Shown in pieces: positions 1 to 10,606 of a stretch of DNA of 10,606 nucleotides (within the stretch, counting starts at the first letter, position 1; each line of letters starts with the position of its first letter). A program made the position numbers and the translations under genes. The stretch comes from an uncultured archaeon (GTDB lineage: Archaea; Asgardarchaeota; Thorarchaeia; Thorarchaeales; Thorarchaeaceae): positions 1 through 10,606 of the forward strand of contig CAYHAA010000035.1 of NCBI GenBank assembly GCA_964354495.1, written 5' to 3'. Below the pieces are notes generated by a model that was not told where the DNA came from, made no database searches, and saw only the letters and a program-made list of their open reading frames with translations.

Positions 1-46
1 TGACTCTTCAAAATGCATAGTTGACAACCTCTTGCGTGAGTCTTGC

Positions 47-105
47 CTGCGGGCGGGAGGGAGGTGTCTGCCTTATAGTTCCTTCGTATGAGGCTCTGTC
101 TGCCT
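47..105 (+). repeat. Dispersed intergenic hairpin repeat, copy R1 (long form)
   Basis: 75-99 ATAGTTCCTTCGTATGAGGCTCTGT matches 5018-5042 at 23/25 nt. The G-rich left arm CTGCGGGCGGGAGGGAGGTG resembles CTGCGGAGGGAGGAGAGTG at 4991-5009. Internal 9-bp direct repeat TGTCTGCCT at 65-73 and 97-105. Confidence 0.9.
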
Positions 106-122
106 ATATCCATGGACCTATT

Positions 123-607
123 GGCAAATCGATTATTGGAGGTATATACTATGGTTCATTGGAAGTATAAGGAGATATTCACTCGGAGGTACATGAACTG
201 TTCACCTCAGACTCTCTGGCAAGCACTGTCAGTGGCAAAGAGAATGCCTTCACCATCAAAACTCTCCTCTGAGTGGTTCATGAATTTCCTCATGCAATAT
301 GACAACCTGTGGACTAGGTCTGCCTACTACTACTACTTCAAAGTCATTTGTCAGGAACTGGGCAGTGAATGTCTATGCCCTGATGATATCTCTCACACTA
401 AGTACATCATTGCTTCTTTGGTTGACTTCTGGAGCAACACTAGGATTCATACCTCTTGTTGGAGCAGTCTTCTTCATCCTTTCAGATTCAGTTATTGGTA
501 TCAGAGAGTTTCATCATGACATTAGGAATGCAGAGATAATGATACTCTCAACATACTGTCCAGCAATCTTCCTTCTCTCATCAGGAGCGATTTTCTTCAC
601 ATTTTAG
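123..607 (+). pseudogene. yhhN: Decayed/truncated YhhN-family (lysoplasmalogenase-like) membrane protein gene; intact C-terminal part in ORF 299-607
   Basis: ORF 299-607 carries VYALMIS...GAVFFILSDSVIGIREF...ILSTY, the typical YhhN C-terminal pattern, but is only 102 aa. Upstream frame 3 reads IIGGIYYGSLEV*GDIHSEVHELF...AFT, resembling the YhhN GD..LF..AF segment with stops and frame changes. The 5' boundary is uncertain. Confidence 0.65.
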
Positions 608-611
608 AGTG

Positions 612-670
612 AAGAGAAAAAGAAAGAGTGATGCTCCTCCTATGAGGATTATCACTTTATTTCTTCTTCA
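612..670. terminator. Hairpin between convergent genes, flanked by T-rich tracts on both strands (possible bidirectional terminator); also a degenerate copy (R0) of the dispersed repeat
   Basis: GTGAT(628-632) pairs with ATCAC(651-655); TCCTC(635-639)-CTAT-GAGGA(644-648). The minus-strand tract is TCTTTCTTTTTCTCTT (612-627); the plus-strand sequence after the stem is TTTATTTCTTCTTC. Confidence 0.55.
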
Positions 671-2369
671 TGAGAACTATTACCACAATGAGAAGGACCA
701 GTATTCCAGCAGCTCCAGCGATGACTAAAGTCATTGAATCTATTAGCTGACCACCAGTAGTTGAACTAGTTGTTGTGATCGTGATACTTGTAGTTCCTGT
801 ACTTGTTGATGTTGGTGTTGTTGCAGGCTGTGTCACAGTAACAAGAACTGTGTCGGATGCAGAATTCCCAATCGTATCGTTTACGAATAATGTATACAGA
901 TGAACACCCACTTCTAGTCCATCAATGATAACATCAAAGCTGGAACCATTCCATAGACCTGAATCAATCGCAGTCCCATTCTTTGATATGATGTACGAAT
1001 CGGGAAAGAGGTCAGAACAAATCCAAACAAGATGATTACCTGTGAGACCAAGTTCATAGGTGATGTCTTCTAGAGGCGTTACTGAGGGCGAATTATCATC
1101 AAGCATTACTGTTATAATGACTTCATCAGTTGCGTAATTACCATAGGTATCATTAGCACTTAGTATAAAGATATAGGATGCCACGGAGAGTCCATTCAGG
1201 TTCACTCTCAAATCTGTGCCATTCCATGGTCCTTGATCTATCACAACACTGTCTTTTGTGATAACGAAATACTCAGGATACGGTTCGTCACATAGCCAAG
1301 TGAGGTACTCACCGGATATGCCATATGGAATGGAAAAATCAGCAATATCGGAGATTGTTGGCACAGTAGTATCAGTTACATTGACATAAACAGTATCCGA
1401 TGCGAAATTATCCAGGTCATCATAGACAATTAAATCGTATTTATAATAGCCCGGGTCTAGATTGGTTAGAGGGAAAGAGATCTGAGAACCATTCCATGAT
1501 CCATAGTCATCGAGCACATCATCGATATACAATTCAAAGTTCTCAGGAGCATATGCTTCAGGTGTCCATATCAGGCTCACTGAGTCCGAATATTCCATTT
1601 CGATGTCATCTATTGAATCGACCTCAGGAGCAACACCACCAGTGATTTTTATCCAATCTATTCGTATATCAGGATAGGTATGATACTCATTCACATAAAA
1701 GTGCAAGGAAATAACGCTAATTGTCCTTGTTTCAGCAGCATGTTCGCTAGTTGAAACAACTCCATCGCCAAGATTTGTTCGAGTTGTACTATCTGCTGGG
1801 TTGTACCATATTGATGAGTAGTTCATGTAATTTGATGTGTACTCATAGTCATAGGTATACAAATCACCGGTATAGTGATTTATTGCCCAACTCACCTTAC
1901 TGGAACCAGAAGCTCCATAGGCAAGACGATAGGCAACACCCATATCCTGACATGTCAGAATATCAAGGCCACCCTCCTCGGACCCTGTAGGAGTATATTG
2001 AACCTGCGCTTCTAGCTTGAAGTTATAATCCACTACGAAGGTAGTACTGAGAGGAAAATTGAAGCTAGCATGCTCAATTCCACCAGAGGAAACTACATTT
2101 GAGAATAATGCTATCCCTGATGAATTCAAAGTCCATTCACCATATGATGTAGTCCATCCAGTAGTATTTGATCCATCATGATACCAAGTCGTCAATTCTT
2201 GTGCAGCGGGTGAGAGACCTCTGCTTTTTTCCATTGCATCTACTCTTCTATTGTTCATCACATCAGTAGACGTCCCAAACATTGAGGACGATATAAAAAA
2301 TAGACTCATGGAAAGAAAGAGTGTAAGTGCAAGAGCCACCGTTAGTATTTCTCTAGTGTGCTTGTCCAC
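657..2369 (-). CDS. Membrane-anchored cell-surface protein: signal/TM, beta-rich (lectin/LamG-like?) N-domain, 3 Ig-like repeats, Thr-rich linker, C-terminal TM + KKK
   Basis: 570-aa ORF with GTG start. Hydrophobic N-terminus ILTVALALTLFLSMSLFF; three ~86-92-aa repeats with L.W, G.WNG[ST] and D..[GD]N.A.D.V.V motifs; linker TQPATTPTSTSTGTTSITITTTSSTT; terminal LVIAGAAGILVLLIVVIVLM-KKK; many N-x-S/T sequons. Confidence 0.9.
   Translation of the reverse strand: MDKHTREILTVALALTLFLSMSLFFISSSMFGTSTDVMNNRRVDAMEKSRGLSPAAQELTTWYHDGSNTTGWTTSYGEWTLNSSGIALFSNVVSSGGIEHASFNFPLSTTFVVDYNFKLEAQVQYTPTGSEEGGLDILTCQDMGVAYRLAYGASGSSKVSWAINHYTGDLYTYDYEYTSNYMNYSSIWYNPADSTTRTNLGDGVVSTSEHAAETRTISVISLHFYVNEYHTYPDIRIDWIKITGGVAPEVDSIDDIEMEYSDSVSLIWTPEAYAPENFELYIDDVLDDYGSWNGSQISFPLTNLDPGYYKYDLIVYDDLDNFASDTVYVNVTDTTVPTISDIADFSIPYGISGEYLTWLCDEPYPEYFVITKDSVVIDQGPWNGTDLRVNLNGLSVASYIFILSANDTYGNYATDEVIITVMLDDNSPSVTPLEDITYELGLTGNHLVWICSDLFPDSYIISKNGTAIDSGLWNGSSFDVIIDGLEVGVHLYTLFVNDTIGNSASDTVLVTVTQPATTPTSTSTGTTSITITTTSSTTGGQLIDSMTLVIAGAAGILVLLIVVIVLMKKK
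834..1631 (-). repeat. Three tandem Ig-like protein domain repeats (1374-1631, 1098-1373, 834-1097)
   Basis: Aligned motifs LIWTPE/LTWLCD/LVWICS, GSWNGS/GPWNGT/GLWNGS, and DDLDNFASDTV/DTYGNYATDEV/DTIGNSASDTV. Confidence 0.85.
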
Positions 2370-2394
2370 TTCTTCTACTTCCTAGAATTCCATT

Positions 2395-2410
2395 TTTACT
2401 ATAAATTAAA
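2395..2410 (-). promoter_or_regulatory. Candidate archaeal TATA box for the surface protein gene
   Basis: Minus strand TTTAATTTATAGTAAA; TTTATA lies ~31 nt upstream of the GTG start at 2369. Confidence 0.5.
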
Positions 2411-2412
2411 CG

Positions 2413-2826
2413 TCACAAAAAAGGCGAAATTAAACATTGTGAGTCCTTAGGTGCCCTAGTGATCGAACCAGATATTGCAACAATCTCTATGTGTGCTGCA
2501 TACCATGATGGATCAAACTGTCCAATACAGAGTCCTCCAATTGAGCCTCCATATGCAGTAGCATAAACATTGTCAGTTCCATTTACGACTGCTCTGATAG
2601 GGACTCCATTTTGAAGTGCAGTGTTGTTATAGTCCCACCCATGGGAACTTGCTACACCCCATATCAGCCAGACTTCAGTTTCACTATACTGCATCCAGTA
2701 ATATGATGGAGCACTTGTGAACATAATATCATCCCAGATTACATCCTCACTCTTTCTATTTTGGTTGATTCCAGTGATTCTATGGGTATCTGTTCCAGCA
2801 GAGGTCATTTCATTGTAGGTCTTCAA
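2413..2826 (-). CDS. Hypothetical extracellular-type protein, probably a 5'-truncated gene fragment
   Basis: 137-aa ORF with TTG start and no signal peptide. It has W/Y/G/N-rich composition and NNT, NGT sequons like the neighbouring surface protein. The frame stays open upstream (GVYIDEQYATAQ) into the 3' end of the next gene. Confidence 0.5.
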   Translation of the reverse strand: MKTYNEMTSAGTDTHRITGINQNRKSEDVIWDDIMFTSAPSYYWMQYSETEVWLIWGVASSHGWDYNNTALQNGVPIRAVVNGTDNVYATAYGGSIGGLCIGQFDPSWYAAHIEIVAISGSITRAPKDSQCLISPFL

Positions 2827-2869
2827 TTGTGCAGTAGCATACTGTTCATCAATATAGACTCCTCTTGCT

Positions 2870-3568
2870 CTATATGAACGGATACAGTCTCCCGCTCAAT
2901 AAGAACAGGCTCAGCATGAGTCCCGAGAGAAGAGCGAATGTGACAACTACCTCGACCCATCTCTGCGCGAATGTGATGCGGGGTATAAGGAATCCAATAT
3001 TCCTCCGATAGTCCAACCACGCCTCTGGAAACAATCCTCTTAGATGATGTTCCTCGAACAATGCGAGTCCTATGTATGCTAACATCATCGGGAACCAGAT
3101 TGCAAGTGTCATCTCTGGTGTGAGGTATCCGAAGCCGAACGTATGCTGAAGAATCCAGACACTCCTGTTTGTCAATGAGGCCGTGAACATGAGCAGGCCA
3201 AGGTACTGAGGATGCCTGACTATTCCATACGGCCCGGTAGTGACGAGTCTTTCTCGCTCACTGCGATGTAGGAACAATACTGAGTAAAACAAGAGGCCGA
3301 GCCCGAGAAGTGTCAGTGCTATCTCAACGAGTCCTCCACCGAGGAATAGAGTCAGTAACAGAGCTGGGAAATAGACAAAATCAGTCACCATCACGACAAG
3401 GTAGATGAATAAAGGCATGGTCATGAGCCCCACATAGAAGTTGGGGGCGGAGATGAGAAGGGGAAGTATGTACGACACTGCATTCACTATCACCCTTCTG
3501 ATTCGTTCTACGCTCCCTGCCTTTGCCGAGGGTTCCGTACTGCCATCGTTACCCGTTGTCATCGCCAA
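2870..3568 (-). CDS. Isoprenylcysteine carboxyl methyltransferase / PEMT-family integral membrane methyltransferase
   Basis: Multiple TM segments, family motif LVTTGPYGIVRHPQYLG, and downstream EE..L...F...W.DY. Start is TTG 3568 or ATG 3562. Confidence 0.85.
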   Translation of the reverse strand: MAMTTGNDGSTEPSAKAGSVERIRRVIVNAVSYILPLLISAPNFYVGLMTMPLFIYLVVMVTDFVYFPALLLTLFLGGGLVEIALTLLGLGLLFYSVLFLHRSERERLVTTGPYGIVRHPQYLGLLMFTASLTNRSVWILQHTFGFGYLTPEMTLAIWFPMMLAYIGLALFEEHHLRGLFPEAWLDYRRNIGFLIPRITFAQRWVEVVVTFALLSGLMLSLFLLSGRLYPFI

Positions 3569-3607
3569 TCCGTACCTTCACTGTCTATGATGACTATCTC
3601 TACGTAT

Positions 3608-3622
3608 CTCCTTCCATGAAGC
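3608..3622 (+). repeat. Degenerate repeat copy R2b
   Basis: CTCCTTCCATGAAGC versus CTCCTTCGTATGAAGC (5022-5037): one deletion and one substitution, both in the loop. The CTTC/GAAG stem is intact. Confidence 0.5.
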
Positions 3623-3647
3623 GAAACAATCATAGCTGTAGACATCA

Positions 3648-3670
3648 TATATTTCCTTCGTAAGAGGCTC
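3648..3670 (+). repeat. Dispersed repeat copy R2a
   Basis: TATATTTCCTTCGTAAGAGGCTC matches 74-96 at 21/23 nt. Confidence 0.85.
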
Positions 3671-3813
3671 CTAATGCCATCAGCAATGGATGTAATAGCT
3701 AACCAATCATTGGAGGCGAGCCCTTTCGTTCATAAAGCCTGCAGTGAGATACTTAATCAAAGGTATTTGCGGTGTTCATCTGCAATCCTAATGGCAATCA
3801 CGGCGAGCAGCTG

Positions 3814-3851
3814 AAAAAAGAAGTAATTGCTCAACACTGATTGAATGTTGA
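3814..3851 (-). terminator. Candidate terminator of the 3865-4200 gene
   Basis: Inverted repeat TCAACA(3831-3836)-N9-TGTTGA(3846-3851) just after the stop, followed on the minus strand by T6 (3814-3819). Confidence 0.4.
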
Positions 3852-3864
3852 TCGTGCTGAGCAA

Positions 3865-4200
3865 TCATACTCTCTTTGCTAGAAGCAGAAGAGATCCAAT
3901 AATGACTAGAACTCCACCCACTGTGCTGGCAAAGTGGTACATGAGAATACCCATGATGATTACGACTATCCACTTGTTCCTGAATTCAAGCGCCTTGATC
4001 TTGATTGTGCCACTGTTCACTAGAGCAATCAGTGAGAATATGATTCCGAGGATGCCCATTATCATGCCATCAGTAATGAAGATCGTGAGCCAGGTGGGCA
4101 GGATAGGGTCCCATCCCATAATCTGAAGAATACCCTCAATGAGTCCAATGATGCCACCAATCAGTATTAGGATATCTCCTATTTTCTTAAGGTCCGCCAT
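3865..4200 (-). CDS. Small multi-pass membrane protein (111 aa), hypothetical
   Basis: Start moved from the ORF-track 4287 to ATG 4200 (MADLKKIGDILILIGGIIG), which has an AGGAG Shine-Dalgarno 8 nt upstream. About four hydrophobic Gly/Ile-rich helices. Confidence 0.8.
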   Translation of the reverse strand: MADLKKIGDILILIGGIIGLIEGILQIMGWDPILPTWLTIFITDGMIMGILGIIFSLIALVNSGTIKIKALEFRNKWIVVIIMGILMYHFASTVGGVLVIIGSLLLLAKRV

Positions 4201-4537
4201 TTTTAGTACTCCTGATATTTGTGGAACTGTCTTCGAAACATACCATGACGATGATGTGTATTGAAGCGTAGGTAAGAGAAAAAGCAATTGACGAGTAGCT
4301 AAAGATTGTGTCTTGGTAGCGCATCACTCCTCATGGCTGTTAAGAATTGGCATATCCATATGATTCCGGCTATATTTGACTATCGCCAAATTCGGTCTCT
4401 ATTCAACTTCGCCCATATCTTAATGCGCCTGTCAATTGCGCCTTTAACAGACCGTACAGGTTGTACAGAGCAGTCATACTTGGCGGGAATCATTGGTTTA
4501 ATATGCGACCCCTGCGATTCACGAATGGGAATCCGGT

Positions 4538-4873
4538 TTGTCTGTAATGGCCCCCGCGTATCTTTTGCCTTTGGCACTGGAATTTGGCCTGCTGCTGTAC
4601 TTTCTCTACATACTAAGGACTCGAGGCACGCAGAAGGACAGAAAATCCTTGTTCATTATCTCTATAATCCTCTCGTTCTTCGCCTCTGTCACAATCCTTG
4701 AGGTGTTGAACTACAGTATGATACCGCCACTGCCACCACCTCCAGCGACCCCTGAGAATTGGTATTCTGATGCCATGGTTATGCGCTCCCTAGCATCGAT
4801 GAAGGCTCAAGTCGAGGCCATATTCCTGTTCATTCTCGCATTGTCGTACATGTGTGCGAAATCACAGGAGTAG
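4538..4873 (+). CDS. Small 3-TM membrane protein with a proline-rich loop, hypothetical
   Basis: Three hydrophobic segments, a basic loop RTRGTQKDRK, and PPLPPPPATP. TTTAATAT (TATA-like) at 4497-4504. Start is TTG 4538 or ATG 4547. Confidence 0.65.
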   Translation: MSVMAPAYLLPLALEFGLLLYFLYILRTRGTQKDRKSLFIISIILSFFASVTILEVLNYSMIPPLPPPPATPENWYSDAMVMRSLASMKAQVEAIFLFILALSYMCAKSQE

Positions 4874-4911
4874 TCTTCGCAGCCGGAGTAGTCCAAGTCA
4901 ACGTTTGATGG

Positions 4912-4926
4912 TCAGGAGACTCCTGA
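4912..4926. promoter_or_regulatory. Perfect 15-bp palindrome (operator or hairpin)
   Basis: TCAGGAG-A-CTCCTGA, 38 nt after the stop of 4538-4873. Confidence 0.35.
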
Positions 4927-4990
4927 GATTTGGCACTCAAGGGAAGGTAACAGAAGCTTCTCTCTATGAACAATGCGGACTCTGGACTAA

Positions 4991-5042
4991 CTGCGGAGGG
5001 AGGAGAGTGCCCTGCTCATAGCTCCTTCGTATGAAGCTCTGT
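4991..5042 (+). repeat. Dispersed repeat copy R3 (long form)
   Basis: CTGCGGAGGGAGGAGAGTGCCCTGCTCATAGCTCCTTCGTATGAAGCTCTGT aligns along its length with 47-99; core 23/25 identical. Confidence 0.9.
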
Positions 5043-5259
5043 TTCCGTGTCTCATGAGATATGCAGTAGGGTCCTAACTCTACGTTTCATGATCAACTTG
5101 CTCAGTTCCTTTTTTGACTTCATGAATCATCTCAGTAGTTTCTGCTCGATTGGTGTTGTCAGAGCTATCATCAAGGATGCCGGAATAGATCATGTGCGCT
5201 CAGCATTGCTGGGTGGTGAAATATCGACTGAACAACCATCCGGTTCTCAGGCATTCTAA

Positions 5260-5290
5260 GACCGCGCTTAGCGGGTCAATTATGTTTAAG
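5260..5290 (+). promoter_or_regulatory. Hairpin plus candidate TATA box upstream of the flavodoxin gene
   Basis: GACC-G-CGC-TTA-GCG-G-GTC stem (5260-5277) and TTTAAG at 5285-5290, ~41 nt before ATG 5332. Confidence 0.35.
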
Positions 5291-5331
5291 AGTAGCATTT
5301 CAATAGGAACAGAGGCCGAGAATCGGACAGC

Positions 5332-5835
5332 ATGAACGCTATTGTGGTATACTATTCTAGAACCGGGACTACTAGGAAAGTAGCGGAAGGAATCTCAACA
5401 GCCCTCAAATGTGATGTTGAAGAAATCATTGATACGGAAAACAGGTCAGGCGTCATAGGTTGGCTGAAATCAGGCAGAGACGCAGGTCGAAAGGCATCAG
5501 CAGAGATTGAACCGCTGAAGAGAGATCCGGCCTCCTATGACATCGTGGTCATTGGAACCCCAATGTGGAACCACACACTTGCTACACCGGTCAGAGCCTA
5601 CATCACACAGTACAAGGATCGCTTCAAGAGAGTTGCCTTCTTCCGGACAGGAGCCAGCACTGACGACGACCCATTTGATGAAATGGAGTCCCTCTGCAGA
5701 AAAAAGCCAGTTGCCACCCTGAAACTCCGTAGAAAGTCACAAGTCGAAGCTAACCTGTATGAAGAAAGAGTCAGAGAATTCGCCGAAAGAATCACTACGG
5801 ATGCCCAGGACCCACGCACAAAACAGGCTAAGTAA
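5332..5835 (+). CDS. Flavodoxin-family protein
   Basis: FMN-binding loop VYYSRTGTT, YDIVVIGTPMW motif and VAFF.T strand; 167 aa. Confidence 0.92.
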   Translation: MNAIVVYYSRTGTTRKVAEGISTALKCDVEEIIDTENRSGVIGWLKSGRDAGRKASAEIEPLKRDPASYDIVVIGTPMWNHTLATPVRAYITQYKDRFKRVAFFRTGASTDDDPFDEMESLCRKKPVATLKLRRKSQVEANLYEERVREFAERITTDAQDPRTKQAK

Positions 5836-5919
5836 TAGGAGAAAGCCCCGTTCTAGCAATGGCTTTAGTGCACTGAACAAGTTAAATAGCTCTCATATAT
5901 GACTGCCAATCGGTGAGTC

Positions 5920-6861
5920 ATGTTGAGAGTGCTCGTGCTTGGTGGTACTGGCTTTCTGGGTTCAAGGATTGTCACCAGACTGAGCTCGCGTGGTCATGAG
6001 GTCACAATACTCACCCGTCGGACTGAGGCAGCAAAATACTTCGGTAGTAAGGGCATTGAAACGATTGTAGGGGACCTCATGGAGCCCGAGGCGTTCATAG
6101 ACAGCATAGGTCCGCAGGACTGCGTAGTCTCTGTTGCAATGCCTTTTGAGTTCGGAAGAATATCGAAGAGCAAGTTCGCTCAGATCAAGGAGAGGACGAC
6201 CAAGTTCGTGTCGACGGCTCTTACCATCGGGAAGAGACTCGACTGCCCTACCATACTGACTCTTGGCACTGCCTACAGCACTAAGCCAGGGCAAGTAGCT
6301 GACGAGTCTTGGCCACTTGTCCGGACGGGTCTCACGAAGGCTGGCGAAGAGGCGGACGTGCTTATTGCTAAGGCAAAGAAGGAGGGACAACCACTCATCA
6401 TAATGCTCCCGGGTCAGATCTATGGACCGGGTGGCCAGTTCCTCAAGATGTATGAGATGATGAAGAATGGGCGCTCGGGCGTCTTCGGGAGAGGTGACAA
6501 CCACATCCCGAGGGTACATGTCGATGACTGTGCTCAGGCCTTTGTTCTTGCCATAGAGAAACAGCCTGTGGGTGAGTCATTCATCATAGCTGACGACACT
6601 CCGTGTACCACGCGAGAATTCACAGAGCGCATGGCGGAGTGCATGGGACTGCCAAAGCCACGGACTGTTCCAATATTCATCGCTCGAATCGTTCTTGGTG
6701 GTCTTCTTCTGAGCGTTATACAGATGGACTGCGTGGTGACTAATGAGAAGGCCAAGAGAGAGCTGGGCTGGGAGCTGCAGTACCCCTCTTATCGAGAGGG
6801 TCTCAAGGCTACAATCGACTATCTACGTGAAGGTACGGTCCCAGGCCCGTCCGGATCATAA
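5920..6861 (+). CDS. NAD-dependent epimerase/dehydratase family (atypical SDR)
   Basis: Rossmann GGTGFLG, PGQIYGPG, VHVDDCAQA and C-terminal NEKAKRELGW.L.YPSYREGL. No clear YxxxK catalytic motif. Confidence 0.92.
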   Translation: MLRVLVLGGTGFLGSRIVTRLSSRGHEVTILTRRTEAAKYFGSKGIETIVGDLMEPEAFIDSIGPQDCVVSVAMPFEFGRISKSKFAQIKERTTKFVSTALTIGKRLDCPTILTLGTAYSTKPGQVADESWPLVRTGLTKAGEEADVLIAKAKKEGQPLIIMLPGQIYGPGGQFLKMYEMMKNGRSGVFGRGDNHIPRVHVDDCAQAFVLAIEKQPVGESFIIADDTPCTTREFTERMAECMGLPKPRTVPIFIARIVLGGLLLSVIQMDCVVTNEKAKRELGWELQYPSYREGLKATIDYLREGTVPGPSGS

Positions 6862-6873
6862 GAGACAAGAGCA

Positions 6874-6910
6874 GAGGTGATACTTACCTCGTATGAGGCC
6901 CTGTCCTGCG
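6874..6910 (+). repeat. Dispersed repeat copy R4
   Basis: GAGGTGAT box, perfect hairpin CCTC-GTAT-GAGG (6887-6898). 6889-6905 matches 84-100 at 16/17 nt. Followed by TGTCCTGCG (6902-6910). Confidence 0.8.
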
Positions 6911-6996
6911 ATGAACAAGAGAAGTAGTAATGAATCTTAATTCTCAACCCGTCGTAAGGCATATCAGAAAGGTCTGTCAGCATAAAATGACTGCTC

Positions 6997-7614
6997 ATGC
7001 AAAACACAGGTCATAGCCCCTATAATGTGACAAAAAGGGATGCAAAGAAGGTCATTGAAACCATGGTCCAGGCATTCTTTGATGACCCTCTATGGTGTCA
7101 TTTCTTTCCAGAACACAACAGCAGGTCAAGAGTCCTTCCGAGATTCTTCAACTACCGTGTTAGGAATGGTTTCATCGATGGGAAAATCTTTGCCACCTCT
7201 GAAAACATTGAGGGCGTTGTTATCCTTACACAATCGGAACGCAAGAAGTTTAGTTGGTTAAGGGCAATTAGAACTGGAGGGATCGGCCTGTATCGAGTAG
7301 CTGGGCCTGACGTTGTTAGAGAAATGCTAGAATTGGAGAGTTTTGTGGCCAGCAAGAGAGCTGAGTGTGTTTCTGAGCCCTATTGGTATCTAGGATCATT
7401 GGCAGTTCATCCAGATTATCAAGGGAAAGGTCTGGCCAGTAGACTCATTCGACCTGTACTCGAAATGTGCACATCACAAAACAGACTCTGCGTTCTGGAT
7501 ACTCAGAATGAACGTCTTGTACAAATGTACAAACATTATGGTTTCGATACTGTTGACTCATTCATGTTACCTGTGGTCAACATCCAACAATACATCATGG
7601 CCAGACAACCGTAG
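6997..7614 (+). CDS. GNAT-family N-acetyltransferase
   Basis: AFFDDPLW N-terminus, motif A YLGSLAVHPDYQGKGLASRLI, and motif B LDTQNE...MYKHYGF. Confidence 0.92.
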   Translation: MQNTGHSPYNVTKRDAKKVIETMVQAFFDDPLWCHFFPEHNSRSRVLPRFFNYRVRNGFIDGKIFATSENIEGVVILTQSERKKFSWLRAIRTGGIGLYRVAGPDVVREMLELESFVASKRAECVSEPYWYLGSLAVHPDYQGKGLASRLIRPVLEMCTSQNRLCVLDTQNERLVQMYKHYGFDTVDSFMLPVVNIQQYIMARQP

Positions 7615-7661
7615 TAATAGGGGACCTCTTCTCTACATTGCCAAAGAGAAAGACCGAGTAT

Positions 7662-7697
7662 GGAGAGTGTCCTGCGTATAGTTCCTTCGCATGAGGC
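7662..7697 (+). repeat. Dispersed repeat copy R5
   Basis: GGAGAGTGTCCTGCG followed by TATAGTTCCTTCGCATGAGGC (7677-7697), which matches 74-94 at 20/21 nt. Confidence 0.9.
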
Positions 7698-7818
7698 GCT
7701 ATCGCTCTTCTACACAAAGGATGGATTCAGACAGAAGCAAATGTGCCCCGCGTTGTTTCACTATTTGAGTATCCGGTATTGAGAAGAATTATCTGAGTGC
7801 TCATCGATACGGTACGAG

Positions 7819-8208
7819 GTGATTCTTGGAGTGAGCGGACCAGACCCCCGAAAGGTCGTCCTCAAGTATATCAAGGCAATCAATTCGCGAAACTCTGAAG
7901 CGCTCGTGGCGTTGCAAACCGAGGACTTCACCTTCATCAACTATGAGGGAGATGCCTACGTTGGTCGAGCTGGATGGCGTGACTACTTCACCGCATACCC
8001 GGAGTACAAGATACACGTGGATAGGCTCATCACCAGCGGGACTGGCGTTGCAATCATCGGGCGGACGACCGGCTGTCATGTTGGTCCGGAGGTCGAAGCA
8101 AGATGGACAGTGCTCTGGACTGCAGAGGTCAGACAGAATCTTATCGCTGAATGGCGTATCTACTCGGATGCTGAGGAGATCAGAGGGGCAATAGAAGCGG
8201 GACGGTGA
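7819..8208 (+). CDS. SnoaL-like / NTF2-fold protein
   Basis: V..YI.AIN..N...L..L..EDF..I...G....G...W..YF...P.Y......L pattern. GAGGTGAT at 7816-7823 suggests the real start is the in-frame GTG 7831. Confidence 0.8.
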   Translation: MILGVSGPDPRKVVLKYIKAINSRNSEALVALQTEDFTFINYEGDAYVGRAGWRDYFTAYPEYKIHVDRLITSGTGVAIIGRTTGCHVGPEVEARWTVLWTAEVRQNLIAEWRIYSDAEEIRGAIEAGR

Positions 8209-8323
8209 TGCCGGAGTTATCGAGACGATATCCACGTACCGTGAGAAGATCTGTAAGACAACGGCCCATGCGAATCCTCTATATGGCTAAGAATGAAACA
8301 CTCATTCTGCGAGAGATGGTGTA

Positions 8324-8887
8324 TTGGCTGATATTGACAAAAGTGCGAAGAAATCTGCATTTGCTATTGTCATTCTCAGGATTCTCTTGACACCTGCATT
8401 CTTCTATGCATTCATGTGGGACTTCACTGAGATTGCAGTCATTCTCTATCTTGCAGCATTTGCCTCTGATATTGTAGACGGCATCTTGGCAAGGAGGCAA
8501 GGAATAATCCCGTCATCGCCCGTCGAGGCCTATCTTGATCCTGTAGCTGATTTTGTGTTAATCTTCGCATCTTTCTATGTATTCTCTCTCAAACAGTTCT
8601 ACCCCTCTTGGATCTTGTTTGTATTTGTCCTCATGTTCCTATTCTTCATCATCTCGTCGAGCAAGAAAGAGCCCCTTTACGATCCTGTGGGAAAATACTA
8701 TGGAACATTTCTCATGACCACAATTGGAATCACTCTCTTCTTTCCAACAGAGCCTGTCTTCAATGGCGTTCTACTTCTCATCATTGGATATACAGCTGGC
8801 TTGGTCATCTATCGAGCAGTCTATCTCTGGAATAATCGAAAAGAAAATGAGGGTCTGAGGTTCTCTGAGGAAGTGAAGACAAGATAG
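8324..8887 (+). CDS. CDP-alcohol phosphatidyltransferase family protein
   Basis: SDIVDGILARR...EAYLDPVAD matches DxxDGxxAR...GxxxDxxxD except that G2 is E. Multiple TM helices; TTG start. Confidence 0.85.
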   Translation: MADIDKSAKKSAFAIVILRILLTPAFFYAFMWDFTEIAVILYLAAFASDIVDGILARRQGIIPSSPVEAYLDPVADFVLIFASFYVFSLKQFYPSWILFVFVLMFLFFIISSSKKEPLYDPVGKYYGTFLMTTIGITLFFPTEPVFNGVLLLIIGYTAGLVIYRAVYLWNNRKENEGLRFSEEVKTR

Positions 8888-8909
8888 GCAACAGTGTGAG
8901 TGAGACGCT

Positions 8910-9461
8910 ATGAACAAGAAACGAGTCTGCGGTCTGACGTGTATCATCGTCATTGCAGGACTGATAATCAGCGGAGTGATTATTGTCAACCTCAATAGTG
9001 TTGAGATAGTTCGGGATGTGGCAATCAACAATCCAGATGGGTCAACCGGCACGGCATTCGTGGTGTTCCGACCCGGAGTGACAGGTTTCAACGAGGCTGT
9101 GGTGAATGAATTCGTTCGCGGACTAGTAGACTCGGACTGGCGAGTGGAAGTGACCACGAGTTCATCGGTGACCCCCACAAATATGACTGGATATGACCTG
9201 ATTGTTCTAGGGAGCCCAACGAACGGGGCAAAACCACACGCATCGATGCTTGACTATCTCACACGTGTTGATTTTGGAGGAAGGCCTGTCGTGTTGATCC
9301 TTACGTCTGGTGGACTAGGTGGAGCTGGACTTGACCACTTCAGGAATGCAACTATCGACGCAAATGGCGTGGTCCTTAGTGCAATGCAATTCGCGATATA
9401 TGAGATGGATGCAGGAAGCAGAGCCTATACTGCTGGGACCGAGGTGTCGTTGGAACCATAG
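8910..9461 (+). CDS. Membrane-anchored flavodoxin-fold protein
   Basis: Basic N-terminus plus a single TM (CIIVIAGLIISGVIIV), then AFVVF.PG, YDLIVLGSPT and PVVLILTSGG flavodoxin-fold strands. It starts 22 nt after the previous stop, so co-transcription is likely. Confidence 0.7.
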   Translation: MNKKRVCGLTCIIVIAGLIISGVIIVNLNSVEIVRDVAINNPDGSTGTAFVVFRPGVTGFNEAVVNEFVRGLVDSDWRVEVTTSSSVTPTNMTGYDLIVLGSPTNGAKPHASMLDYLTRVDFGGRPVVLILTSGGLGGAGLDHFRNATIDANGVVLSAMQFAIYEMDAGSRAYTAGTEVSLEP

Positions 9462-9618
9462 TCTGAGTAGTCTGCACGTACATTGCAAACCCATGAACTG
9501 TTCTCTTCGACCGTGCCCCAAGGACTATTGCTGCTAAGATCCACTCAAGAACAACCGCTAATGGTCATAGTCCCTCATTCTGCTATTCGCTTGTCAATGA
9601 ACTATCTCAGGAATAAGG

Positions 9619-10431
9619 ATGATAGATCATTGCTTCGAAAGCAAGTCCCATAAGCAACATTCATCGAAATCCATCTCTATGGGCGTGACTACTCAGAATT
9701 ACTACGTTCAGAGGAAGGACTATTGGCTAAAATTCTACCATAGCATGGTCGATAATAAGAAGGTTCAACAACTCGTGCTGGAAAAATACCTTAGTCCTGA
9801 AAAGATCCCTGAAATGAAGTCAAGAATACAACAGCAATTTGAAGAATTACTACCACAGATTCCGGATTTTGGAAACAAGCGAATTAACCCCTTTTCCAGG
9901 GAAATGATTAGGACCGCTCTATCTCTAGTGTTCTATCGGGTCCTCAAAGCAGAGGGATTTCAATTACAGACGATCGGACAGATGCTGTATGAATTCGCTG
10001 ATGTCTATTATGGAAGTCTAAACCCGTTCATCAAATACCTCATGCGTCGGCCTTACTTCTCTTCGTATTTTCAAAAGAAGGCAAAGAACGCGTTAGAAAG
10101 ACGAAAAGCATCGGTTGATCCCGAGGACTATCATTGCGTTTTCGTTGAAGGTGATAAAGAAAATCTCCTCTTTGGCGTAGATTACACCAATTGTGGAGGT
10201 CTGAATTTCCTAAAGCATCAAAATGCTCTAGAGCTAGCACCTTACCTCTGTCTGTGCGACTACCCAATGTACAGGGCAATCAAAGTTGGTTTTAATCGTG
10301 CTGAGAATTTGGCGATTGGTGGGGCGAGGTGTGCCTTTCGTTTTTATCGTAGTTATCCAACATTGAAAGGCTGGCCACCCGAAGAAGTAAGTGAATACAA
10401 AGACTTCAATTTTGCTAAACAGAAACCATAG
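9619..10431 (+). CDS. L-2-amino-thiazoline-4-carboxylic acid (ATC) hydrolase family protein (V4R-like fold)
   Basis: FGVDYTNCG, LAPYLCLCDY and R..NLAIGGARCAFRF Cys motifs typical of the family. The real start may be ATG 9679 (MGVTTQNYY). Confidence 0.8.
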   Translation: MIDHCFESKSHKQHSSKSISMGVTTQNYYVQRKDYWLKFYHSMVDNKKVQQLVLEKYLSPEKIPEMKSRIQQQFEELLPQIPDFGNKRINPFSREMIRTALSLVFYRVLKAEGFQLQTIGQMLYEFADVYYGSLNPFIKYLMRRPYFSSYFQKKAKNALERRKASVDPEDYHCVFVEGDKENLLFGVDYTNCGGLNFLKHQNALELAPYLCLCDYPMYRAIKVGFNRAENLAIGGARCAFRFYRSYPTLKGWPPEEVSEYKDFNFAKQKP

Positions 10432-10470
10432 TTCTTGTGCGTTCCAACTCGGATGTCCGTTCAACGATAG

Positions 10471-10499
10471 GGAGAGTGGCCAATTCCTTCTTTGATGCT
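10471..10499 (+). repeat. Degenerate repeat copy R6
   Basis: GGAGAGTG (as in 5002-5009 and 7662-7669) followed by TTCCTTC-TTTGATGCT, compared with TTCCTTCGTATGAGGCT; 40 nt after the stop at 10431. Confidence 0.45.
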
Positions 10500-10606
10500 A
10501 GCATTCCCAATAGCATAGTCATTGCGCTCTTGCCCTCTTTCTCCCCCTCCTACCGTTCATTGTAAGTTGTACAATCTTGGACACCAGAGCGTTGTACCCC
10601 CAGGAA

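Follow-up and report, generated by a model that had tools for sequence, protein, structure and literature searches.

Asgard archaea stand closer to eukaryotes than any other known prokaryotes, and the question of how they come by their genes takes concrete form at a locus in an uncultured archaeon of the Thorarchaeaceae: what is the short repeat that stands, always on the same strand, between accessory genes of unrelated kinds? The stretch of DNA analysed here, called the window below, comprises positions 1-10,606 of contig CAYHAA010000035.1 (assembly GCA_964354495.1) and is the entire contig C35 of assembly G000 (3.3 Mb, 51 contigs, 97.7% complete). A first-pass annotation had left three options for the repeat: a recombination or insertion site of a cassette system whose enzyme lies outside the window, an element like a repetitive extragenic palindrome (REP) or miniature inverted-repeat transposable element (MITE), or an RNA element of 3′ untranslated regions (UTRs). 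Comparative evidence favours the first, and the other two fail. We find, with high confidence, an array of swappable modules that is anchored on an acyl-CoA dehydrogenase (ACAD) gene, at its 5′ end, and has its joints at the core of the repeat; that this core is the exchange site of a recombinase acting in trans is a reading that we favour only tentatively. Below, G denotes genomes (G000 being the window's own), L loci, F cassette families and X the contig sets of studies.

A same-strand repeat with a near-invariant core

The five same-strand copies initially reported are borne out by a shuffle test, a repeat finder and a model. The 21-mer TATAGTTCCTTCGTATGAGGC matches the window four times at up to 3 mismatches, against 0 times in 200 shuffles. 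The repeat finder returned a five-copy 26-nt family in register at 75, 3649, 5018, 6880 and 7678, all on the plus strand, with cores beginning at 78, 3652, 5021, 6883 and 7681. When a covariance/sequence model of 39 copies was applied to the window with its filters switched off, it picked out precisely these five (E 7e-18 to 4e-8; next best E 1.8). All five are intergenic and on the plus strand, as had been stated. Three weaker copies proposed at 633-647, 3608-3622 and 10471-10499 receive no model score at E up to 10; the last combines a left box with 13/17 of the core at a plausible place and is not significant.

The copies are spaced 0.8-3.6 kb apart, with full-length genes between them. Copy 1 (43-119; 56.6 bits, E 7e-18) is the most complete and the closest to ACAD. 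It consists of ACAD 5′UTR and left box (43-71), CTTATAG (72-78), TTCCTTC (79-85), GTATGAG (86-92) and the right box TGTCTGCCT (97-105), followed by the leader and ribosome-binding site of a plus-strand open reading frame (ORF) from 152; this right-arm leader is also found in other copies. Copy 2 (3621-3694; core 3652-3667 with 2 mismatches, E 1e-8) sits 84-90 nt upstream of the start of a minus-strand methyltransferase gene (2870-3568). Copy 3 (4988-5050; core 5021-5036 with 2 mismatches, E 1.4e-14) has a left arm similar to the ACAD 5′UTR in a register alignment. Copy 4 (6853-6922; core 6883-6898 with 3 mismatches, E 3.6e-8) marks the SDR/GNAT joint and is decaying; the SDR stop codon falls in its left box, and a related strain has a better copy at this joint. 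Copy 5 (7651-7719; core 7681-7696 with 1 mismatch, E 1.3e-15) marks the GNAT/SnoaL joint. The claim that five copies follow plus-strand stop codons stands for three (cores at 5021, 6883 and 7681); copy 1 lies upstream of the minus-strand ACAD start (ATG at 18-16) and copy 2 upstream of a minus-strand gene start.

The near-invariant core is 21 nt long, CTTATAG-TTCCTTC-GTATGAG. It comprises two imperfect inverted 7-mers (5/7 arm symmetry) around an asymmetric 7-nt spacer (7-7-7), and the TTCCTTC spacer is the most invariant part of the site. Measured against the consensus, 50 distinct internal copies have an identity of 0.38 at their far-left end, which rises to 0.55 within the left box (GGAGAGTGCCCTGC), 0.77 in TTATA and 0.93 in GTTCCTTCG; it is 0.88 in TATGAGG and falls to 0.51 within the right box (TCTGTCTGCC) and to 0.37 past it. 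The core values are partly inflated by ascertainment, since the core served to find the copies. The upstream GGAGAGTG-type box pointed out earlier is real and corresponds to this left box (55% mean conservation among internal copies). In copy 1 the 9-mer TGTCTGCCT forms a perfect direct repeat flanking the core (65-73 and 97-105), and in other copies both boxes, left and right, are made up of 8-9-mers akin to it (TGCCCTGC, TGTCCTGCG); these flanking 9-mers may be either accessory binding sites or the trace of an old 32-nt duplication.

The conserved feature of the repeat is its sequence, not a structure. Single copies fold no better than shuffles on either strand (z-scores near 0), and RNAalifold found 0 consensus pairs in the 39-copy alignment. 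An Rfam scan at a permissive threshold gave no family for the repeat, its sole match, at chance level to glutamine-II, lying elsewhere; no guide-RNA-like complement of the core occurs elsewhere in G000 at up to 3 mismatches. An initial hairpin reading (GCCTTATA...TATGAGGC, with a seemingly compensatory copy on contig C23) was rejected, the C23 look-alike being marginal and inside an ORF. This look-alike (C23:268-323) has the left box, CTTATAG and the right box with a diverged core; it lies within a 260-aa ORF that has no Pfam family, near a contig end, and has an nhmmer E of 0.009 and no covariance-model match at E 0.001.

The array is anchored on an acyl-CoA dehydrogenase gene

The last 55 nt of contig C34 are identical to window nt 1-55, so the two contigs adjoin. 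The window therefore opens with ACAD codons 1-6 (MHFEES; 1-18, minus strand), the remainder of the gene being on C34, and copy 1 is the ACAD-proximal copy. The G000 orthologue (90% identity) occupies C34:9672-10910 on the minus strand, 37 nt from the contig end. Copy 1 starts 34 nt upstream of the gene, which is transcribed away from the array. On the contigs of nine relatives, oriented alike and with their ORFs clustered, a 413-aa gene likewise lies directly before the first repeat and is transcribed away from it, with its start codon about 36 nt from the repeat unit; it encodes not a recombinase but an acyl-CoA dehydrogenase with the Pfam ACAD N, M and C domains. The position of copy 1 relative to the ACAD ATG is the same in 9 related loci from metagenome-assembled genomes (MAGs) and in at least 30 metagenome loci, and the unit begins 22-36 nt from the divergent ACAD start codon in the 9 MAG loci and in 5 outgroup genera.

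The array is thus anchored on the ACAD 5′ end, and the repeat, judged by its sequence and placement, is a copy of the predicted promoter and 5′ flank of that gene. In all the genera compared, CTTATA-GTTCCTTCGTA keeps the same distance upstream of the ACAD ATG, 62-66 nt, although the UTR between them varies. Read on the ACAD strand, the order is a purine-rich element, TATAAG, about 25 nt, a UTR with GAGGT, and ATG, a geometry that would fit an archaeal promoter with TATA box and transcription factor B recognition element (BRE); the gene-proximal 21-nt site coincides with this putative TATA/BRE.

Internal copies carry varying amounts of the same region. Their left arms are ragged, holding nothing further, or a left box, or ACAD 5′UTR, or a decayed ATG followed by up to 22 ACAD codons. 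An internal copy of L032 preserves ACAD codons 2-23 at 91% aa identity, and decayed ATG regions with ACAD codons also occur in L023, L062, L057 and L060. Some right arms extend, as in window copy 1, through the right box and a leader with TTGGAGGT into a plus-strand gene, of which they hold the first ~11 codons (MVH...). Full right arms together with ACAD-bearing left arms indicate that the fullest unit is a copy of the whole divergent intergenic region beside ACAD, as read from these alignments. The plus-strand ORF 152-519 ('Gene X') was considered as a conserved ancestral ACAD neighbour and rejected, as it is not beside ACAD in the outgroups.

One locus across the genus and beyond

Across the 3.3 Mb of G000 the motif occurs on contig C35 only; the genome-wide scatter that the first-pass annotation had named as the sign of an ordinary terminator or UTR motif was not seen. 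The profile scan it had proposed shows copies at one locus and on one strand, conserved across the genus and beyond. Other species of the genus have the exact core too, clustered on one strand of a single contig, and a census with the model found copies in 21/28 genus genomes; a genome has at most 7, all on the same strand and as a rule on one contig, rarely on two. Among five repeat-less genomes examined, four also lack an ACAD orthologue. The fifth, G011, retains the ACAD gene and one weaker copy of the repeat (3 core mismatches) but has no array. At the family level 9/16 genera have copies; in five outgroup genera a copy again adjoins the ACAD start, with two to three copies in G082 and five in G065. 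In a metagenome set of 74 unbinned loci, fetched through the ACAD protein, 61/61 repeat hits lie on the array strand and on the ACAD 5′ side, with up to eight copies. For one relative, the contig that bears the array is available as public record SMTZ1_10008335. No conserved distal flank of the array was found, and the neighbour in G011 matches no cassette. Repeat and ACAD orthologue are both absent from G001, G003, G018 and G025 (89-95% complete), in which the whole locus (gene and both arrays, the second described below) may be either accessory or systematically lost in binning.

Modules are exchanged at the core

A synteny comparison, the second check proposed for this locus, shows modules gained, lost and re-ordered exactly at the repeats, between species and between strains. 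The SDR cassette (F2) opens the array in L028 and L031, takes roughly the fourth place in the window and comes seventh or later in L022; in L028, L031 and L022 alike it has a repeat on either side. The GNAT cassette (F4) also occurs in L031 and L023 with other neighbours, and F3, F8, F25 and F7 likewise take varied positions and different neighbours between arrays.

The joints can be located closely. Cassette-specific sequence opens right after ...GTATGAGG (GAGG), regardless of the preceding module. Left-box variants accompany the left-hand cassette (the ends of F2 SDR and of F8), the SDR-end/left-box sequence being the same in 4 genomes in which the right-hand neighbours differ. Right-arm variants go with the right-hand cassette: GACTGAGG precedes F3 in L033 and L031, and TATTG.G precedes F25 in L031 and L028. 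Sequence to the left of the site therefore travels with the left module and sequence from core position ~10 rightwards with the right module, which confines exchange to ~14 nt, TTATA-GTTCCTTCG.

The same holds among strains, compared here on assembled contigs that leave parts of the window, such as 3895-4248 and 8851-10266, without cover. A 9.6-kb contig of a close relative carries window 1-3662 (module 1, 97% identity), 57 other bases, 5866-6872 (SDR, 92%), a repeat, 6961-7564 (GNAT, ~80%), ~3 kb of other DNA, a repeat, and 4482-4874 joined to 8322 onwards; such unequal identities on one contig indicate separate module histories. The break point at 3662 lies inside the core of copy 2. The joint of 3662 to 5866 recurs in contigs of two independent studies (X1/X3 and X5), and a contig of a third study (X6) starts at 5866 with unrelated sequence before it. 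At the window's joints near 4482, 5866 and 8322 no repeat can be recognised, which shows that decay and non-site events occur as well.

A sister array at the 3′ end of the same gene

On the C34 side, tblastn and alignment confirm a second cassette array, whose repeat consists of the last ~22 ACAD codons and a hairpin terminator. Remnants of the ACAD 3′ end were confirmed in L031 (six), L033 (two), L029 (one) and L113 (twelve); in the metagenome loci all of them lie on the opposite side of the gene from the 5′ repeats. The ACAD gene is thus flanked by two arrays. These share the anchor and the genomes, small swappable modules and the absence of a recombinase, and both repeats copy ~22 terminal ACAD codons with the adjoining signal. 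They differ in the side of the gene and in sequence: no core is shared, C34 lacks any TTCCTTCG, and the architecture of the 3′ block, coding remnant plus hairpin terminator, has nothing in common with that of the 5′ unit. Conservation in the 3′ array is spread over the coding remnant, whereas in the 5′ array it is concentrated in the 21-nt site. L113, a 125-kb metagenome contig (Ga0114923_10000029, which also yielded L074), holds 12 ACAD 3′-end remnants and one weak 5′ copy, an imbalance implying that the two arrays expand independently.

What moves the modules?

We lean, with less than even confidence, towards an integron-like gene-capture array in which the core is the exchange site of a trans-acting recombinase. 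Conservative site-specific recombination at the core would insert, excise and re-order modules. TTCCTTC would serve as overlap region, and an enzyme encoded outside the array would bind the two imperfect inverted 7-nt arms. Occasional recombination or duplication of a longer promoter block would yield the internal copies that carry ACAD 5′UTR and codons.

Three kinds of observation argue for this reading. First, conservation is compact, and the spacer is more conserved than the arms. Second, every joint falls inside a stretch of ~14 nt, also where the two sites have no more than ~20 nt in common. Third, the core is perfect where its flanks have decayed and where a promoter would be useless: 16/16 cores stand beside flanks at background identity, with the TATA-like arm destroyed (L022:3352 and 6563) and between convergent genes (L024:3051 and L027:2800). 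A proximal-to-distal gradient of core decay, seen in L031, L028 and the window and not in L022 or L023, was not used as evidence.

Against it weighs, above all, the search for the enzyme. The first-pass annotation had proposed looking for a tyrosine or serine recombinase or a Y1-HUH gene near the repeat, and none was found in more than 30 arrays. Tyrosine recombinases (PF00589) number 0 in G000, compared with matches in 14/14 control genomes; they are absent from 20/28 genus genomes, which accordingly have no XerA, and elsewhere lie on unrelated small contigs, never on an array contig. SSV-type integrases (PF16795) were not found, and Y1/RAYT transposases (PF01797) gave 0 matches. Among 49 + 10 + 39 cargo and flank proteins from more than 30 arrays there is no integrase, no resolvase and, save for one TnpB-like protein, no transposase. 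Two IS607-type MerR-resolvase (serine recombinase) genes on C22 and C24 were rejected because the family does not track the arrays: it was not found in array-bearing G013, G017, G065, G068 and G077 and is present in array-less genera.

The repeats themselves add further difficulties. The sister 3′ array uses an unrelated block, which one sequence-specific enzyme does not explain. The arms are ragged, and many internal copies carry ACAD 5′UTR and codons or the leader of the neighbour gene. Lineage-specific variants recur in adjacent copies (in L032 GATAATTCG in the first two, in L022 a 2-nt deletion, and in L062 a duplicate with its own UTR and core variant), as expected from duplication or gene conversion of a resident block. 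The core is slightly better preserved next to leftward gene starts, a weak trend (1.16 vs 1.82 mismatches; one-sided p 0.058, with non-independent copies), and promoter use may contribute to core conservation. The ascertainment of copies through the core, noted above, counts on the same side.

Two other candidates for the enzyme were set aside. The recurrent cassette proteins F3 and F8 are polytopic membrane proteins. The type IB topoisomerase (TopIB) of G000 (C27:15073-17151, ~690 aa) is eukaryote-like and near-universal in the family (38/41); as an array-specific enzyme it was rejected, being of a universal, long eukaryote-like type with no specific link to the arrays. TCCTT is the cleavage pentamer of poxvirus and bacterial type IB topoisomerases, and the invariant segment of the core contains TCCTT; given this, the universal TopIB is a candidate for a co-opted strand-exchange enzyme.

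The main rival, which we regard as rather unlikely, dispenses with a dedicated enzyme and invokes homologous recombination between duplicated ACAD promoter blocks. Circular or linear DNA bearing an ACAD block (~130-250 nt at most, comprising the first ~22 codons, 5′UTR, TATA/BRE and neighbour gene leader) would insert Campbell-fashion and duplicate the block, and later RadA-dependent recombination, unequal exchange and gene conversion would shuffle modules. The core would then seem special as the last remnant of truncated copies and a selected part of the promoter. This explanation accommodates the failure of every search to find a recombinase, the two unrelated blocks, which are the functional ends of one gene (~22 codons plus promoter or terminator), the arms ragged on both sides, the lineage-specific variants in neighbouring copies and the window joints at 4482, 5866 and 8322, which lack a repeat and point to non-site events. 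It meets difficulty in exchanges between sites sharing ~20 nt (the left arms of the F4 and F8 ends before F25), which is short for RadA-type recombination. Neither neutral decay nor flank-dependent conversion tracts would keep 16/16 cores beside background flanks, and it gives no reason why one gene among hundreds of conserved ones is a family-wide hot spot. Block-level homologous recombination probably also contributes under the site-specific reading.

A purely regulatory explanation is improbable. The repeat would be a duplicated, portable promoter or operator (ACAD TATA/BRE with a transcription-factor site) that drives or co-regulates accessory genes, and differences in gene content would be ordinary insertions and deletions in a permissive region. 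The fixed distance to the ACAD ATG across genera suits it, as do several minus-strand cassette genes that begin 55-71 nt from a core, like ACAD, and the weak trend towards better-kept cores near leftward starts. However, perfect cores persist despite a destroyed TATA-like arm and also between the ends of convergent genes; many cassettes have their own promoter-like TTAAATA ~27 nt before the ATG (as in the SDR cassette); the supposed BRE/spacer is more conserved than the TATA arm; and module joints at the core in every species are left unaccounted for.

The two remaining options of the first-pass annotation, a REP/MITE-like selfish repeat and an intrinsic terminator or 3′-UTR RNA motif, are very improbable. 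The repeat is short and intergenic, and three window copies do follow plus-strand stops, but its confinement to C35 excludes a dispersed REP/MITE and a general terminator alike. REP/RAYT systems combine dispersed palindromes with a Y1 transposase, whereas here there is one locus per genome, no palindrome and no RAYT. Intrinsic terminators place a stem-loop and T-run after genes; this repeat has no hairpin or T-run and no Rfam family, two window copies precede minus-strand starts and perfect copies lie between convergent genes.

That the array is the remnant of a classical integron (a CALIN, or attC cluster without integrase) is close to excluded: same-strand repeats between accessory genes, and the enrichment of integrons and CALINs in Asgardarchaeota (PMC9668308), would suit it, but the repeats lack RYYYAAC/GTTRRRY ends and consensus pairing, the cassette genes face both ways, the anchor is ACAD and PF00589 is missing.

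Comparison with known systems

The first-pass annotation had held that the locus is neither an attC integron nor a CRISPR array, and both exclusions are upheld. CRISPR arrays have regular 25-40-nt repeats and non-coding spacers of 25-70 nt, as against the 0.8-3.6 kb with full genes found here.

Integrons (PMC9668308) are like the array in their fixed platform beside an anchor gene that is transcribed away, in small modules bounded by sites in the same orientation, in strain-level module shuffling and, for sedentary chromosomal integrons, in sites that are alike within a lineage. The integron anchor is intI, a tyrosine recombinase gene of a kind that G000 lacks, rather than ACAD; attC sites are hairpins with R and L boxes, whereas the sites here are sequence-conserved and unfolded, with no R-box consensus seen; and integron cassettes are co-oriented and mostly promoterless, whereas these face both ways and often have their own promoter. 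Unlike in integrons, the site derives from the anchor's promoter and 5′ end, and a second, unrelated array occupies the anchor's 3′ end. The array is thus integron-like in its working yet fails each defining integron feature tested (IntI, attC fold, co-oriented promoterless cassettes).

Gene-end islands, namely tycheposons at tRNA genes (bioRxiv 10.1101/2020.12.28.424599) and islands at the 5′ end of dusA (PMC4482086), are bounded by direct repeats of a gene end, as here. In dusA islands the 5′ end of a protein gene is the target and the element supplies a replacement 5′ end (PMC4482086). Partial gene copies, a feature of both, are found here too, internal copies carrying ACAD 5′UTR and up to codons 2-23, and as in such islands newer elements push older ones outward while remnants decay. 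Yet the integrase is the sole universal gene of dusA islands (PMC4482086) and defining for tycheposons (bioRxiv 10.1101/2020.12.28.424599), whereas 0 of more than 30 arrays here carry their own; and the constant part of gene-end islands is a gene fragment, here a 21-nt core.

The pdif (Xer) modules of Acinetobacter plasmids (PMC6449649, PMC13141974) have short (~28-nt) arm-spacer-arm sites and small modules, like the array, and are also extensively shuffled, in their case from replicon to replicon, with no recombinase in the module, being moved by a host enzyme in trans. But pdif sites are recognised by XerC/XerD and alternate in orientation, whereas the sites here are all direct, the host lacks an Xer-type recombinase, and the array is chromosomal and tied to one gene.

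A wider proposal, which we consider possible though doubtful, is that of a new gene-capture platform in Thorarchaeota, in which one ACAD gene carries two cassette arrays with unrelated sites made from its own ends, served by a novel or co-opted enzyme. That enzyme would be either a new recombinase without a Pfam-recognisable tyrosine, serine or HUH domain or a co-opted housekeeping enzyme. In the searchable literature we came across no account of arrays of this kind, either from Asgard archaea or next to ACAD genes.

Modules and their cargo

The cargo named by the first-pass annotation (methyltransferase, flavodoxin, SDR, GNAT, SnoaL and membrane proteins) was confirmed with Pfam. Module 1 (120-3620) has one plus-strand ORF region and three minus-strand genes, and is 97% identical in the related strain's contig. 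The ORF region consists of ORF 152-519, with a good ribosome-binding site and an MVH... start, and an overlapping match to the C-terminal half of YhhN in another frame (299-607; profile positions 105-181/182). The 97%-identical strain has no indel in 152-607, so this is a conserved frameshift or pseudogene and not a sequencing error; G000 holds a second copy of the region at C4:118037-118321 (67-73% aa identity). The minus-strand genes encode a 570-aa PKD-domain surface protein (657-2369), a 137-aa protein of no assigned family (2413-2826) and a PEMT/ICMT-type membrane methyltransferase (2870-3568). The surface protein gene has an internal periodicity of ~270 nt (CCATTCCATGGTCC at 946, 1219 and 1489), which corresponds to tandem PKD/Ig-like domains followed by a C-terminal hydrophobic anchor.

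Module 2 (3695-4987) carries a membrane protein gene on the minus strand (3865-4287) and a gene for a 111-aa membrane protein on the plus strand (4538-4873). In the X3 contig a repeat core stands directly before 4482-4874 (joints of 97 to 4482 and of 4874 to 8322), so module 2 is two cassettes whose joint near 4482 is lost. Modules 3 to 5 are on the plus strand. Module 3 (5051-6852) holds a flavodoxin (5332-5835) and an SDR/NAD-epimerase (5920-6861); as relatives have the SDR in a cassette of its own, a hidden joint lies near 5866. Module 4 (6923-7650) is a lone GNAT acetyltransferase cassette (6997-7614). Module 5 (7720-10551) has a hidden joint near 8322, joined to 4874 in the related strain, and encodes SnoaL-like (7819-8208), CDP-alcohol phosphatidyltransferase (8324-8887), flavodoxin-like (8910-9461) and ATC-hydrolase-like (9619-10431) proteins.

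Positions 10552-10606, at the assembly break, are the end of another dispersed repeat family and not part of the array. By blastn this family has more than 20 genome copies on both strands (80-98% identity), in many contexts and at high depth in contigs. Copies near IS607-type TnpA genes or fragments occur on C24 and C46, and the segment is probably the end of an insertion sequence (IS) or MITE.

Over all arrays from MAGs and metagenomes, ~88 non-redundant cargo and flank proteins fall into ~100 Pfam families, none dominant. They include PEMT/ICMT and other methyltransferases, CAAX protease, CDP-alcohol phosphatidyltransferase, Na+/H+ antiporter, PKD and beta-helix surface proteins, flavodoxins, GNAT, SDR and SnoaL proteins, a Ras-family GTPase and many membrane proteins of no assigned family. 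Modules are mostly single genes of 0.4-2 kb, with multi-gene modules in the window, and about half of the repeat-flanking genes lie on each strand. The one TnpB-like (Cas12f1-like_TNB) protein lies in or beside a metagenome array or flank (set A4); together with the IS-type repeat at the window end, it suggests that IS elements settle in these arrays.

Significance

The locus is a lineage-wide gene-capture site that is actively turning over, with cargo mainly of envelope proteins, lipid-modifying enzymes and small redox enzymes. Capture proceeds here without a recognisable integrase, in genomes mostly without Xer-type recombinases, and the two-armed layout around a single metabolic gene is not described in the searchable literature. 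It is possible, though doubtful, that the machinery of the shuffling is new. If an enzyme acts on the 21-nt core, it would represent a new site-specific recombination system with a short, defined target, and a useful tool; if there is none, the locus would be a natural case of integron-like cassette trading by homologous recombination alone. In either case it offers a PCR-sized target for following gene flux in uncultured Asgard populations, and the novel-platform reading, if true, would mean that an analogue of the integron evolved independently in the archaeal lineage closest to eukaryotes.

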